A stretch of DNA of 64,000 nt from Minisyncoccota bacterium (GTDB lineage: Bacteria > Patescibacteriota > Minisyncoccia > Phycocordibacterales > UBA1006), in assembly GCA_028697455.1 (NCBI GenBank), contig JAQVEZ010000001.1:3902-67901 (forward strand), given 5' to 3'. How positions within the stretch are numbered: the stretch's first letter is position 1; every line of letters starts with the position of its first letter. The position numbers and the translations under genes are program-made. Below, one piece after another: positions 23,140 through 27,764 of this stretch. The notes under the pieces were generated by a model, which saw only the letters and a program-made list of their open reading frames with translations, had not been told where the DNA came from and did no database searches.

Positions 23140-25836
23140 ATGCCTCCATTTCAAAATTTTACCCAAAAAGCAAAGGATATCATTCGTAGATCACATGAAC
23201 TTGCAATAGAGCGAGGACAAAACCAAGTTAATGCTCTGCATCTTTTAACAGCCTTTATTCTTCAAGAGGACGGTTTTTTCGTTTCTCTTTTGGAAAAACT
23301 TAATATTAATGCACAAAATGTAACAAACGATCTTCTTGATGAGCTCGACAGAGAAGAGCAAGACGACACTGTTCAAGACGATACCATTTCTTCTCCTGTC
23401 CAAATGTACCTAACACAGGACCTTGCTTACATCATTGAAAAATCAATGAAAATTGCAAAAGAAAAAGGGGATAAGGTTATTTCTTCTGAACATATTTTTC
23501 TTGCTCTTTTTGAAACCGAGAGCCCTGCAAAGAGTTTTATTCTCGATCTTGGTCTTGAGAAAAAAATCGTAGTAAAAGTTCTTGACCAATTAAAAGAAGA
23601 AAGACAAAAAGAAACGAAAACCTTCCATCACCAATTTAGAAACCTTGCAAAATATTCTCGAAACCTTACTGAGATGGCTTCGAATGACAAGCTTGACCCT
23701 GTTATCGGCCGAGACAAAGAGATTATGAGACTTATTCAGATTCTTTCTCGAAGGACAAAGAATAATCCTATTTTGATTGGAGAACCAGGGACAGGGAAAA
23801 CTGCCGTTGTTGAAGGACTTGCTCAGAGAATGGCAAAAGGGGATATTCCTGAATCATTGAGAGGGAAGGAACTTGTCCTTCTTGATTTGGGACTTCTTGT
23901 TGCGGGAACAAAGTACCGTGGGGAATTTGAAGATCGGTTGAAAAAAATAATGAAAGAGGTCGAAGCCTCAGAAGGGAAAGTTATCCTCTTTATTGATGAA
24001 ATTCATACCATTATTGGAGCAGGGTCGTCTGAGGGCTCAATGGATGCAGCAAACCTTTTGAAACCAGCACTTGCTCGAGGTGATCTTCGTGCTATTGGGG
24101 CAACGACTCTTACTGAATATCAAAAACACTTTGAAAAAGATCCAGCCTTGGTTCGAAGGTTCCAGCCTGTTCAAGTTAATGAACCATCTCTTGAAGATGC
24201 TATTGCCATTTTAAGAGGATTAAAATCAAAATACGAACTTTTTCACGGTGTCCAGATAACAGATGATGCTATTGTTGCAGCAGTGAATCTTTCGTCACGT
24301 TATATTACGAATAGATATCTCCCAGATAAAGCTGTTGATCTTATTGATGAAGCAGCTTCGTCTTTGAAAATTTCTCTTCAGGATAAGCCTGCTGAGCTTG
24401 AAGAAGCACATCGAAAAATTATAAAACTTGAAATCGAAAAGGAAGCTCTTCTTAAGGATGTTGAAAAGGGAGAAAAGACAGCAGAAGAACGTCATGAAAA
24501 AATCAATCAAGAAATAGCCGACCTCAAGGAGTCAACACGTGAGCTTGAGTTGAAATGGATTAATGAAAAAACTATTCTCAATAATATTGCCTCTTTCAAG
24601 GAGAAAAAGGAAAGATATAAAATAGAATCAGAACAAGCAGAAGTTGAAGGAGATCTTGGTCGTGTTGCTGAGATTATTTATGGATTAATACCAGCCACAG
24701 AAAAACAACTTGAAAAAGAACTTAAGAAGCTTTCACGTCTTCAAAAAAATACCAGAATTTTAAGAGAGGAGGTGAGCGAAGAAGATATTGCCAATGTTGT
24801 TTCAAAATGGACGGGTGTTCCCGTAACAAGAATGCTTGAGGAAGAAATTTCTAAACTTGCTCGTATGGAAGAAGAACTCCAAAAAAGAGTAAAAGGGCAG
24901 GGTGATGCTATCGCAAAAATCTCACATGCTATTCGACGTTCACGCGTTGGTATTGGTGATCCCAAGCGTCCTATCGGTTCATTTATCTTTCTCGGTCCTA
25001 CAGGAGTTGGAAAAACAGAATTAACCAAAGCGCTCGCTGAGTTTATGTTTGATGACGAAAAGGCTCTTGTAAGAGTCGATATGTCGGAATATATGGAAAG
25101 GCATTCCATTTCTAAACTCATTGGTTCTCCTCCAGGATATGTTGGGTATGAGGATGCGGGGAAATTTACTGAAACCATTCGTCATAGACCCTATTCCGTT
25201 GTGCTTTTTGATGAGATAGAAAAAGCCCACCCAGATATTTTTAACCTTCTCCTTCAGGTTCTTGATGACGGTCGTCTCACCGACGGAAAGGGAAGAGTTA
25301 TTGATTTTACCAACACCATTCTTATCTTGACTTCAAACCTCGGGTCACAACATTTTCAGAAAATGCAGTCAATTGGTTTTTCTGAAAAAACTCAATCTCA
25401 AAATATTGATGATCAGAAAAAGAAGATTCTCGGATCCTTGAAAGATTTCTTCCGTCCAGAATTTTTAAATCGTTTGGACGATATTATTATCTTTAATCCT
25501 CTTGATAAGGCAGTTATTTCTGATATTACTGAACAACAACTTTCTCTTGCTCTTGAAAGACTTTCAGAAAAGAATATCTCTATTAGTACCTCAAAGAGAC
25601 TTATTAAACATCTCTCAGAAAAAGGATTTGACCCTCAGTATGGGGCGCGACCTTTGAAGAGGCTCATTCAGAATGAAATTCTTAATGAGATAGCCTTCAA
25701 GATTGTCAAAAGAGAAATAAAAGAAGGAGATAAAATTTTTGTTGACTATCAAGATTCAAAAATTGAAATCACCAAAAAGAGTACAAAATCAAGCCAAATA
25801 CGAAAGACTGTTCGAAAGAAAACTAGTCAAAAGTAG
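23140..25836 (+). CDS. clpB: ATP-dependent chaperone ClpB (two AAA+ modules with coiled-coil middle domain), Lys-rich C-terminal tail
   Basis: Clp N-domain repeats, Walker [10 protein letters not shown] and [10 protein letters not shown]-domain coiled coil, and the signature [16 protein letters not shown]...RRFQPV. Confidence 0.9.
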
Positions 25837-25884
25837 ACTTTGTGATATACTCGTGATTGCCTTTCTCTAAAAAGGCAATCATTT

Positions 25885-25967
25885 GCGTCGGTGGCAGAGT
25901 GGTCAATTGCACGGGACTGTAAATCCTGCGACGTTAGTCTACGGGGGTTCAAATCCCTCCCGGCGCA
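25885..25967 (+). tRNA. tRNA-Tyr (anticodon GTA), long variable arm
   Basis: GCGTCGGTGGCAGAGTGGTCAATTGCACGGGACTGTAAATCCTGCGACGTTAGTCTACGGGGGTTCAAATCCCTCCCGGCGCA. No CCA encoded. Confidence 0.85.
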
Positions 25968-26228
25968 CTTATTTTAAAGAAAGACACGAAAGTGTTTTTC
26001 TTTTTTAATAAGAAGATAAGAGGGAGGATTTGAAAAAAGTCGCCTGCAAAGCCGGACGAAGTCCGTAGGCGACGGCGGGGTCGAGGCTCTGAGCTCAAAG
26101 CCGAATCTTTGATTCTAGGCGTGAGCCAGAGCGGTGACCAAATCCCTCCCGGCGCACTTATTTTAAAGAAAGACACGAAAGTGTTTTTCTTTTTTAATAA
26201 GAAGATAAGAGGGAGGATTTGAAAAAAT
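25951..26228. repeat. Direct repeat: 191-bp unit x ~1.45 beginning inside the tRNA-Tyr 3' end; the unit contains a terminator hairpin and a GC-rich structured segment
   Basis: caaatccctcccggcgcacttattttaaagaaagacacgaaagtgtttttcttttttaataagaagataagagggaggatttgaaaaaa occurs at ~25951-26038 and ~26142-26228. The ~103-bp segment between the copies is GC-rich and carries hairpins (gtcgcct...aggcgac; gaatc-ttt-gattc). Confidence 0.8.
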
Positions 26229-26404
26229 AAAAACTCTCTAGAGGGTTTTTTGCTGTTAATGATTTTTATCCCTCACAAGAAATGCATACATTTGCTTCTT
26301 GGGTTGATGTTTGTTCTCCCGCAGGAGCCTCGTTGGTAAAAGGATCGATATATTCTTTCTTTTTCATGTTTCTAGTATACCATAATTTTTTTGAAGAAAC
26401 TCTT

Positions 26405-26447
26405 TTTACTTGACTCGGGGGGGGGGCGGAATATATAATAGAAAGGT
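26405..26447 (+). promoter_or_regulatory. Putative promoter with a 10-G homopolymeric tract (approx 26416-26425) abutting a TATATAAT -10 element
   Basis: gactcGGGGGGGGGGcggaaTATATAATagaaaggtATG. Paralogous to the element at 4690-4727. Confidence 0.45.
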
Positions 26448-27764
26448 ATGAATAAATATATTTTTACATCACTACTATCGTTATTTGTGATAGTAGGTTT
26501 TATAAGTTTTATTAATCCACACACAGCTTCTGCCCAACCTCTTGAATGGGAAGAGTTTGATCTCAGCCCCAATGAATATAATTCTATTGCCTATGGAAAT
26601 GGTGTGTATGTTGCTGTAGGAAGCGGAACCCCCATGTATTCCTCTGATGGGAAGAATTGGAATATGTCAATTCTTCCAAACGCAGCATCACTATCCTCAG
26701 TTGTTTATGGAGATGGGAAGTTTGTTGCGGTGGGGAGAACAGGTTCCCCACTTATGCAAAATATGAATCGGATTATTTACCTTTCTTCTGACGGGCTTTC
26801 CTGGGATATTGCTTCATCAATCCCCGATAAGTTAAATGCACAAAGCAATCTTCTCAGTATTTTTTATATGTATGATAATCTCAACGCTAAAGATTTATTT
26901 GTAGCCTTCGGGCAGGACTACTCTACAGGTGCTGGATCTACTAGCTTACCTTATATTGTTTATTCTTCTGATGGGGACGCCTGGCTCAGATCTACTCTGC
27001 CAATAGGTTCTGACGGAAGCCCGTCCGATGCAGTTGTAGGATATAACGAAAATGGAGAGCTTGTTCTTTTATCCTTTGTATATGGATATGGTATTGGTGC
27101 TCCTTCTTATTATATTATGTCTATTGACGGTGGAGCAACTTGGGTTTACCCGGACTCCCTTACAGGGCTTGATGATTTTCAGGGGCTAAGCATGAGTTAT
27201 CTCAACGGAAAATTTTTCTACGTGGGACATTCTTATGACGATGAAGAAGGTAAGGATCTGTTCTCTGTGAGATCCTCTATGAATGGACTTGATTGGGATA
27301 AAGGATCAATAGAGTTTCCTGAAGAATTCTTATCGGGTAGTAGGGAGACATCTGCTTATGGAGATAACACGTATCTTTTTTTCCTTTCCCCATCACTTGG
27401 TTACACACCCCCTCTCTATTCCCCCAACGGAGAAACCTGGGAATTCTTTACCCCAAGTTTTGATAAGAGTAGTTATGTATCTCCTATCCAATTAATTTAT
27501 GCAGAAGATTCATTTATGCTCCTTGGTCGAAATGAATCAGGAGGATATGTTATTGCTTTTCCCAAATCCTTGAATGATTCATCAGAAATACCTTCTTCAA
27601 AATCCTCAAGTATTTTCGGAACTCGATTCTGTACAGCAGGAGTTACTACCTTCTGTAGACCTCAGAATGGATTTACCAACAATAATCCATTAGTAAATAT
27701 TTACACTGAACTCTTGGGGCTTTATCAGCAACTTTTGAATACGATTCAAAATGAAAACAGCTAA
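26448..27764 (+). CDS. Secreted BNR/Asp-box repeat (beta-propeller-like) protein with a conserved C-terminal domain
   Basis: Signal peptide. Asp-box motifs SSDGKNW, SSDGLSW, SSDGDAW, SIDGGATW. Repeated YG.G.FVAVG blades. The C-terminal ~50 aa (SSIFGTRFCTAGVTTFCRPQNGFTNNNPLVNIYTELLGLYQQLL) is shared with 4728-5279. Confidence 0.65.
   Translation: MNKYIFTSLLSLFVIVGFISFINPHTASAQPLEWEEFDLSPNEYNSIAYGNGVYVAVGSGTPMYSSDGKNWNMSILPNAASLSSVVYGDGKFVAVGRTGSPLMQNMNRIIYLSSDGLSWDIASSIPDKLNAQSNLLSIFYMYDNLNAKDLFVAFGQDYSTGAGSTSLPYIVYSSDGDAWLRSTLPIGSDGSPSDAVVGYNENGELVLLSFVYGYGIGAPSYYIMSIDGGATWVYPDSLTGLDDFQGLSMSYLNGKFFYVGHSYDDEEGKDLFSVRSSMNGLDWDKGSIEFPEEFLSGSRETSAYGDNTYLFFLSPSLGYTPPLYSPNGETWEFFTPSFDKSSYVSPIQLIYAEDSFMLLGRNESGGYVIAFPKSLNDSSEIPSSKSSSIFGTRFCTAGVTTFCRPQNGFTNNNPLVNIYTELLGLYQQLLNTIQNENS

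Follow-up and report, generated by a model that had tools for sequence, protein, structure and literature searches.

The present analysis concerns a stretch of 64,000 nucleotides from contig JAQVEZ010000001.1 of a Minisyncoccota bacterium (the window, i.e., the whole stretch of DNA analyzed), in which a tRNA-Tyr gene is followed on the same strand by a direct repeat of its own 3′ end enclosing a short, GC-rich, structured insert. This arrangement is compared here with RtT of Escherichia coli; knowledge of the repeats at the E. coli tyrT locus and of the RtT RNA dates back to the late 1970s. The tRNA-Tyr gene of the window ends with the discriminator A73 at 25967 and has no encoded CCA. The repeat search demonstrated two copies of an 89-nt sequence, 25950–26038 and 26139–26227, and their 100% identity over this length excludes a chance origin. 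The copies are spaced 189 nt from start to start, which amounts to 1.47 units, and because only 1.47 units are present, Tandem Repeats Finder listed nothing at this locus. Each copy starts at the position of C56 in the T-loop, takes in the last 18 nt of the tRNA and continues for another 71 nt past its end. The intervening 100 nt (26039–26138) have a GC content of 61% (100-nt window) versus approximately 30–40% in the surroundings, and folding compared with shuffled sequences gave z = -3.7 for 26039–26156 and z = -4.7 for 26016–26157. The features of the locus, all on the forward strand, are as follows; P1 to P3, J23, antiT, and the covariance model R1 are explained in the subsequent paragraphs.

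25885–25967/8, + strand: tRNA-Tyr, anticodon GTA (ARAGORN; Rfam RF00005, 56.6 bits).
25950–26038, + strand: first repeat copy, A1, composed of tRNA positions 56–73, then C, the spacer, and antiT (repeat search, 100% identity).
25979–26006, + strand: terminator-like spacer hairpin, GAAAGACAC-GAAA-GUGUUUUUC, then U6 (fold and reading of the sequence).
26022–26032, + strand: antiT, GGGAGGATTTG (sequence, minimum free energy (MFE) fold, alignment to R1, search with the 9-mer GGATTTGAA).
26039–26076, + strand: P2 domain (folds, R1 alignment, family alignment).
26077–26139, + strand: J23 (GG) and P3 domain (R1 alignment, fold, covariation of P3 in 50 family members).
26139–26156, + strand: tail, an exact copy of tRNA-Tyr positions 56–73 (repeat search, R1 alignment, fold).
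26139–26227, + strand: second repeat copy, A2, composed of the tail, a second spacer hairpin (26168–26195), and a solo antiT (26211–26221).
26229–26250, + strand: weak hairpin AAAAACUCUCUAGAGGGUUUUU followed by U's (fold -6.1 kcal/mol, z = -1.5).

A sequence-only reading of the same DNA had described a tandem duplication behind tRNA-Tyr. The direct repeat is real, although the coordinates given for it were off by one and the spacing is 189, not 191. The recurrence of the last 18 nt of the tRNA, the hairpin following the gene, and the GC-rich, structured middle part, all reported there, were confirmed, and so was the general view of a small, structured, tRNA-linked element with the direct repeat of the tRNA 3′ end as its key signature.

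The MFE fold of 26016–26157 (-63.8 kcal/mol) brings the separate parts of the insert together. AntiT is the reverse complement of the T-loop and the 3′ strand of the T-stem of tRNA-Tyr, CAAATCCCTCCC, minus one base; in the fold it pairs with the second copy of the tRNA end, forming the 5′ strand of the closing helix P1, and tail positions 57–63 provide the 3′ strand. P1 closes a three-way junction with P2 (26039–26073/76) and P3, and the last 7–8 nt of the tail, corresponding to the acceptor 3′ strand, stay single-stranded. Since antiT (26022–26032) pairs with the tail, the true 5′ boundary of the element lies inside the repeat and not at 26039. Compared with the family motif GCC-GGA(G)-hairpin-GA-GGC, P2 of the window copy is lengthened; it holds GCCGGAC (26051–26057) and the hairpin GGAC-GAA-GUCC. 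At the base of P3, GGUCG (26079–26083) pairs with UGACC (26135–26139) around a long irregular hairpin, and the domain carries the conserved GGCGGGGUCG and GUGAC motifs.

The spacer between the tRNA and antiT folds by itself (25969–26012, -14.3 kcal/mol, z = -5.4) and a U run follows; the hairpin 25979–26006 was not listed by a simple terminator scan. No core follows the second antiT (26211–26221), and by analogy with the loci designated L094, L169, and L096 we interpret repeat copy A2 as the start of a truncated second unit. The hairpin at 26229–26250, weak by itself, may be the original terminator of the locus. The mechanical list of open reading frames (ORFs) contains a 75-aa ORF with a GTG start on the minus strand (25949–26176), antisense to the element and extending over the tRNA end and the core, which is regarded as spurious.

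To see the locus in relatives chosen independently of the element, the upstream ORF, encoding a ClpB/ClpC-type ATPase, was used to pick 80 Paceibacteria loci comprising 718 kb. Relatives of this ATPase in the species-representative genomes all belonged to Patescibacteria, most being labelled Paceibacteria or Parcubacteria, the best of them with 75% identity. The tRNA-Tyr gene was retained behind the ClpC gene in most of the loci, and in approximately 9 of 68 a second copy of its own 3′ end was found on the same strand, 110–240 nt downstream. Taking all tRNAs of these loci together, such copies were present behind tRNA-Tyr, Trp, Leu, and Cys, 85–240 nt downstream, and were never found upstream of the tRNA. 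The order of motifs between the tRNA and the copy was recurrent: a spacer, an antiT fitting the local T-arm, GCCGGAG, GAGGCGGGGTCG, GTGAC, and a tail starting from C56. Inspection by eye revealed swaps in the P2 stem (GCC/GGC, GAC/GTC, GGC/GCC). Comparison of the tRNA-Tyr locus with related genomes had been named by the sequence-only reading as the way to learn whether the insertion is polymorphic; among these species-representative relatives the element is patchy, and L005, which has the nearest tRNA-Tyr by sequence (97.6% identity), lacks it. Exact look-ups of the two proteins encoded on either side, made to locate the same organism in other records, gave no match.

Two other loci of this set deserve mention. 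In the closest ClpC relative, L002, the segment 6824–6941 contains tRNA-Tyr, a terminator, 42 unrelated nt, and a second copy of the last 16–18 nt of the tRNA. Only 6 nt separate this copy from the contig end, which suggests that such repeats break assemblies. In L019, a tRNA-Leu(TAA) gene (254–338) is followed by 124-bp tandem repeats, each a tRNA-Leu copy truncated at its 5′ side and changed in the T-loop, a form of tRNA-end iteration distinct from that studied here.

A scan of a metagenome collection with a motif pattern, fixing 26 bases and two two-fold degenerate positions, delivered at least 120 loci. The assignment of the family to Patescibacteria is based on the record titles of the ClpC-linked loci, not on these metagenome contigs. 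Among the matches listed, 93 of 120 had a tRNA on the same strand no more than 500 nt upstream; over 30 different anticodons were represented, and 13 of those with no upstream tRNA were situated at a contig edge. The 12-mer of the tail covering the T-stem and acceptor fitted the local tRNA with at most one mismatch in 68 of 89 distinct copies among the matches listed; the tail was truncated or decayed in the other 21. In the same matches the commonest right-hand boundary of the tail was position 76, whether or not 74–76 are CCA.

AntiT also followed the local tRNA, tracking the T-loop variants TTCGAAT, TTCGATT, TTCAAAT, and TTCAATT. Among the matches listed, all six tRNAs with a TGCA-type T-loop were accompanied by an antiT ending with TGCA. 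As antiT mirrors positions 54–55, which are absent from the tail, it must be copied from the tRNA itself or be a partner of it, and cannot be a partner of the tail only. The unusual T-loops TGCAAAT or TGCAATT, with G for the near-universal U at position 55, were noted in tRNA-Met, Tyr, and Cys of L106, L151, L169, L177, L207, and L212. At L095 (2346–2700, minus strand) the same element stands behind a tRNA-like 3′ end, GGGGTTCGAATCCCTATCCCCGAACCA, not called by ARAGORN, which may belong to a transfer-messenger RNA or an unusual tRNA.

Fifty metagenome copies, with the window copy excluded, were aligned and the proposed fold was confronted with this alignment. RNAalifold recovered P2 with its hairpin hp1 and P3, with many compensatory changes. 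When P1 was added, 84.7% of the cells were paired versus 68.7% in shuffled alignments and 35–46% with slid partners; the covariation score was 0.406 versus 0.14, and none of 500 shuffles attained the former value. Compensatory swaps were seen in P1, hp1, and P3, and the inner 7 bp of P1 were well kept, including a UA/AU swap following tRNA position 59. Because the pattern-fixed bases are invariant by construction, the support for the fold comes from the variable stems and from the loci free of this bias.

The covariance model R1, built from the same metagenome copies only, was then applied to the window. Cmsearch gave a single match in the 64-kb sequence, 26021–26157 on the plus strand (25.2 bits, E = 1.9e-6), covering the model over its full length (positions 1–98). 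The score is low for the family, the unbiased loci reaching 28–91 bits, since P2 and P3 of the window copy carry long insertions. In the 718 kb of ClpC-linked loci R1 found 19 matches, each with a same-strand tRNA 4–183 nt upstream (Tyr in 10 cases, Trp in seven, Leu and Lys in one each), corresponding to 10 of 68 tRNA-Tyr and seven of 33 tRNA-Trp loci. The window copy has the three hallmarks of what we call type 1, namely a tRNA within about 200 nt upstream, a tail starting from C56, and an antiT complementary to the T-loop and T-stem, and these were also present in all 19 matches.

Numerous loci gave evidence of iteration and decay. In L096 a second unit is complete as far as the contig extends, in L094 18 nt of the second core are left, and the second unit of L169 has an internal deletion. 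Behind a single tRNA, L111 and L182 have three or four different cores in series, each core with its own antiT and tail. Among pairs of cores with at least 88% identity, 21 of 32 were located behind different tRNA isoacceptors. Tandem units, arrays, and decay are habits of a multiplying element and not of a single conserved gene.

Besides type 1, unrelated-looking cores were noticed on the same antiT/tail scaffold (two copies in L020, one in L046; also L038 and L111; L182; L170). The type 2 core has the form GCCACGGAG...GAGTGGCCGTCC, and the type 3 core ends with CTGAACATGTAATG before TTCAAATCC; further types exist. The two type 2 copies of L020, at two loci of one contig, are approximately 90% identical by eye.

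The same parts were also found in a mirror layout 5′ of a complete tRNA (L108, L143, L170, L174, L194, and L148). The order there is tRNA positions 1–53, a hairpin, a core, the 7-nt stub CGAATCC, a short loop, antiT, a spacer, and the complete tRNA, which is a circular permutation of the components described above. In L148 the duplicated 5′ part of the tRNA includes 24 nt of its 5′ flank. In the subfamily with TGAGAA-hairpin-TCGCAAG preceding the core, the left flank consists of the reverse complement of tRNA positions 46–63, a loop, and a direct copy of 46–53. The insert thus interrupts a partial tRNA copy between positions 53 and 56, and one continuous complementary strand pairs with both flanks. 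The partial tRNA copies of L143 and L170 have in addition a separate 65–95-nt insert in the D-loop region, after about position 12–18; that of L143 contains a hairpin with a AACUGCUU loop, as in the optional hairpin before the antiT of type 1 and type 2 elements.

Altogether, the family has a modular anatomy, a P1/P2/P3 fold, an antiT and a tail matching the neighboring tRNA, many tRNA types as hosts, and a record of iteration and decay. We consider it probable that the feature in the window represents one complete and one truncated unit of an RtT-like element, i.e., a same-strand non-coding module placed directly behind a tRNA gene. The family as a whole is probably a duplicative, tRNA-linked, structured RNA element of selfish character.

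By analogy with the other loci, the 89-nt repeat would have arisen by tandem iteration of the unit, likely through unequal recombination of the tRNA 3′ end with the copy carried by the tail, and the second unit would then have lost its distal core and tail. On the larger scale the family may spread between tRNA genes as a selfish, non-autonomous element whose folded nucleic acid is the feature recognized by the copying machinery. New copies would be formed by joining the core to the T-loop (positions 53–56) of a tRNA gene copy, and with the tRNA duplicated only in part, an intact tRNA would be left in place. A crossover at 55/56 between the gene and a small circle carrying positions 56–76, the spacer, antiT, and the core would produce the observed layout exactly; both the circle and the enzyme are hypothetical components of this model. 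The element may be transcribed together with the tRNA or by read-through, and its tRNA-like 3′ end may be trimmed by the tRNA 3′-end machinery, a proposal made because the annotated 3′ end of E. coli RttR is the CCA of the tail.

Several observations speak against this interpretation or narrow it. A terminator-like hairpin separates the tRNA from the element in the window, and similar ones were seen by eye in many of the displayed metagenome spacers; the spacer hairpin disfavors simple co-transcription, so expression, if any, would depend on read-through or an unseen promoter. No mobilizing enzyme is encoded within approximately 7 kb of the window element, and we know of none for elements of this kind. 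Near-identical cores behind different tRNAs could also have resulted from gene conversion between resident copies. The invariance of the bases fixed in the search pattern is ascertainment, offset only in part by the 19 R1 matches in the ClpC-chosen loci. Among the variable pairs G-U combinations exceeded A-C ones slightly (53 versus 38), and so small an excess does not discriminate between the two strands, or between RNA and single-stranded DNA as the acting molecule. The insertion boundaries and the mobility itself are inferred from comparison of species-representative and metagenome loci. Finally, R1 gave no match at the E. coli locus, nor did the RtT model on the window copy or a canonical Patescibacteria copy.

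A more far-reaching version of the mobile-element reading can be put forward only tentatively, as we think it rather doubtful. RtT-like elements would form an unrecognized class of fold-dependent, non-coding mobile elements homing to tRNA T-loops, with antiT acting as an antisense guide, the core as a ribozyme or as the site grasped by a trans-acting recombinase or polymerase, and a small RNA or single-stranded DNA, circular or in hairpin form, as the intermediate. The antiT-core-tail order and the core-stub-antiT order behind a 5′ tRNA fragment are circular permutations of one another, and E. coli RtT would be a resident relic of the same kind of element.

Among the alternatives, the one surviving best, even if we judge it unlikely, is a vertically inherited RNA serving the host, either a small RNA (sRNA) or a cis-acting RNA derived from the tRNA 3′ trailer, in which the tail and antiT would give a processable tRNA-like end. 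Its presence behind so many tRNAs would then reflect old duplications combined with frequent loss. The conserved and covarying core agrees with such a role, as do the common orientation with the tRNA in 19 of 19 unbiased copies and the annotation of E. coli rttR, which spans exactly the spacer, antiT, core, and tail; RtT itself is of the Rfam type 'Cis-reg'. A host function does not readily account for the patchy distribution (10 of 68 tRNA-Tyr loci), the frequency of decayed and truncated copies, the unrelated cores in serial arrays, or the near-identical cores behind different tRNAs. The terminator-like hairpins preceding many copies and the lack of conservation in the spacer are also contrary to it.

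The residue of an element integrated at the tRNA-Tyr 3′ end had been suggested by the sequence-only reading. In the form considered here, a larger element (phage, plasmid, or island) carrying a copy of the tRNA 3′ end would have used the T-loop of tRNA-Tyr as its attachment site, and later deletion of its interior would have left the direct repeats and a remnant of the attP arm; this now appears very unlikely. Direct repeats of the tRNA 3′ end that extend from the T-loop to about position 76, as found here, are typical of tRNA-integrating elements. It is documented in general that integration can leave partial tRNA genes behind (PMC9897764). Random internal deletions would not yield the same short interval of only about 100–190 bp with a conserved, covarying core in more than 100 loci. 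In the window only 100 nt separate the copies, and the repeat reaches 71 nt past the tRNA. The absence of a nearby integrase, correctly stated earlier, holds within approximately 7 kb, the ten flanking ORFs being housekeeping genes, and blastn gave no match in phage or plasmid collections. Moreover, antiT is left unexplained by an attL/attR scar.

A decayed tRNA-Tyr paralogue or pseudo-tRNA of 88 nt, in whose acceptor stem GCGACGG would pair with CCGGCGC, had also been proposed, and we regard it as highly improbable. Its last 18 nt are indeed identical to those of tRNA-Tyr, and the left flank of one subfamily holds remnants of tRNA positions 46–53, yet ARAGORN and Rfam called only 25885–25968 and no tRNA at the insert. 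The supposed 5′ acceptor strand belongs to the P2/J23 motif GA-GGC-GGGGUCG, which is constant whatever the neighboring tRNA, and the same core stands behind Trp, Arg, Ser, Glu, and other tRNAs. Least credible of all is an event without biological meaning, either a single tandem duplication or an error of assembly. In spite of the 100% identity over 89 nt, a kind of repeat that assemblers can collapse or mis-join, the same layout of two repeat copies around a core occurs in the independent assemblies L094, L096, L147, L169, and L204, and the unique core fits the independent model R1.

The searches for known counterparts of the insert were largely negative. An Rfam match had been named beforehand as the result that would assign the segment to a known RNA family; none matched the core at the gathering threshold, and with Rfam 15 nothing meaningful appeared at E ≤ 10, the best being a C/D small nucleolar RNA on the minus strand (16.9 bits versus a gathering score of 45). 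An exact 34-mer had no match in the species-representative genomes. The two-motif pattern gave 13 matches in viral contigs, of which 12 were chance matches in GC-rich, apparently coding sequence, the expected chance count being similar; one match, L081, looked structured but unrelated.

Other ideas on the core and its copying were tried and rejected. A pseudoknot between GCCGG and the acceptor CCGGC of tRNA-Tyr is contradicted by the conservation of GCCGGAG behind tRNAs with unrelated acceptor stems. A general mimic of the acceptor stem was abandoned as well: an upstream reverse complement of the acceptor 3′ strand was clear in only about 10% of copies (perfect 7-mers, by eye), and the overall signal was barely above shuffled sequences (5.20 versus 4.87). 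For a retro-copy of the mature tRNA, a tail with CCA where the gene has none was seen in six cases versus four of the opposite kind; these counts and the 24-nt flank in L148 make duplication at the DNA level the better explanation. To examine complete but interrupted tRNA genes (T-loop introns), chimeras of the 5′ part and the tail were submitted to ARAGORN, which called only the neighboring intact tRNAs and the truncated L148 one. Hammerhead, hepatitis delta virus (HDV)-like, and k-turn readings of the core were considered by eye, and none fits the conserved junction sequences.

The Patescibacteria family is not in Rfam 15, and no description of it was found in the literature searched. The precedent for this type of element is RtT; the new features are the distinct core, the occurrence at essentially all tRNA types, the 5′-side variant, and the mixed arrays. 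In Patescibacteria, a partial copy of the tRNA gene around a folded insert is common behind the gene and occurs in some cases before it. In practical terms such partial copies can mislead tRNA annotation and break assemblies, L002 ending right after the second copy. If mobile, the family would represent a new kind of tRNA-targeted, non-coding element in hosts with very small genomes and single-copy tRNA genes.

Further downstream in the window, at 26410–26439, a near-consensus promoter-like site was noticed (TTGACT, 18 nt, TATAAT; 11 of 12 matches) with a run of ten G's (26417–26426) in its spacer. It is located just upstream of the ORF 26448–27764, encoding 438 aa with only a weak DUF6242 match. 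The site may represent a promoter subject to phase variation, or the G run may be a homopolymer error.

Comparison with known systems points to several partial likenesses. Integrative elements with attB in the T-loop and their miniature derivatives (cis-mobilizable or resembling miniature inverted-repeat transposable elements) also have direct repeats that run from the T-loop and thereby keep the tRNA intact, a patchy presence, and serial insertions at one tRNA. Unlike them, the family element has only about 100–190 bp and no recombinase nearby, its arms (antiT and tail) copy the local target instead of being fixed terminal repeats, and its interior is a conserved, covarying fold.

Interruptions of tRNA genes include bacterial group I introns, archaeal introns at non-canonical positions, the T-loop among them, and split or permuted genes. 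Common to these and to the family is a structured insert tied to a defined tRNA position (53–56), and the strand pairing with both flanks in the TGAGAA/TCGCAAG subfamily recalls the pairing of a guide with exons. The difference is that in the family an intact tRNA always stands beside the interrupted partial copy; the core is also much too small for a group I or group II intron, and no intron or ribozyme model of Rfam matches it.

Folded single-strand recombination sites are exemplified by integron attC and the attP(+) hairpin of the CTX phage. No integron-type or Xer-type recombinase is linked to the family element, its central part is conserved rather than variable, and its units carry no genes. 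The resemblance lies in the imperfect inverted repeat that rebuilds the target-site duplex within one strand; with such a site new units would enter proximally and push the older ones downstream, which would give arrays like those of L111 and L182.

The closest parallel is RtT. In E. coli K-12 the repeats, each starting with the end of tRNA-Tyr, have a spacing of 178 bp and overlap the 3′ end of tyrV, from which they run onward; each unit matches the RtT model RF00391 at 134–137 bits. In its curated structure GgGaaGGAU pairs with AUCCuuCcC of the copied tRNA end, the GAGAA junction comes next, and CCACCA is unpaired. The sRNA annotated as rttR begins 8 nt downstream of tyrV, and its end coincides with the CCA of the first tail. 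RtT occupies 1–14 places per E. coli genome where present and is without a match in 685 of 5426 genomes. According to a 2024 preprint, how rtT acts has yet to be learned (bioRxiv 10.1101/2024.07.17.603846).

Both elements are situated directly 3′ of tRNA-Tyr on the same strand. The E. coli unit ends with a copy of the last 19 nt of the tRNA, taken from the T-loop, to which the tail in the window is comparable, and in both a 5′ segment complementary to the T-loop and the 3′ strand of the T-stem closes a GC-rich core with multiple hairpins. The purine-rich GAGAA following antiT in E. coli has its equivalent in one Patescibacteria subfamily, which has the same GAUGAGAA junction; the acceptor 3′ strand is unpaired in both systems, and the tandem units have a period of about 180 bp (189 nt with 1.47 units in the window, 178 nt in E. 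coli) and a variable number. The cores differ in sequence and fold. The Patescibacteria tail starts from C56 and often has no encoded CCA, whereas that of E. coli starts from A58, and the Patescibacteria family is found behind more than 30 anticodons, with 5′-side variants and mixed arrays, in contrast to RtT with Tyr only. The RF00391 model (gathering score 45 bits) had no match in the window at its threshold, nor over 25800–26450 at E ≤ 10, nor on a canonical family copy (L026:7372–7480) at E ≤ 10. As the models do not cross-detect, the link to RtT is one of architecture, elements of the same kind and not of the same family, with homology not demonstrated. A very large and diverse sister family built on the RtT plan offers many natural variants that could separate the essential parts, i.e., P1 with the T-loop sequence, the junction purines, P2, and P3, from the incidental ones.

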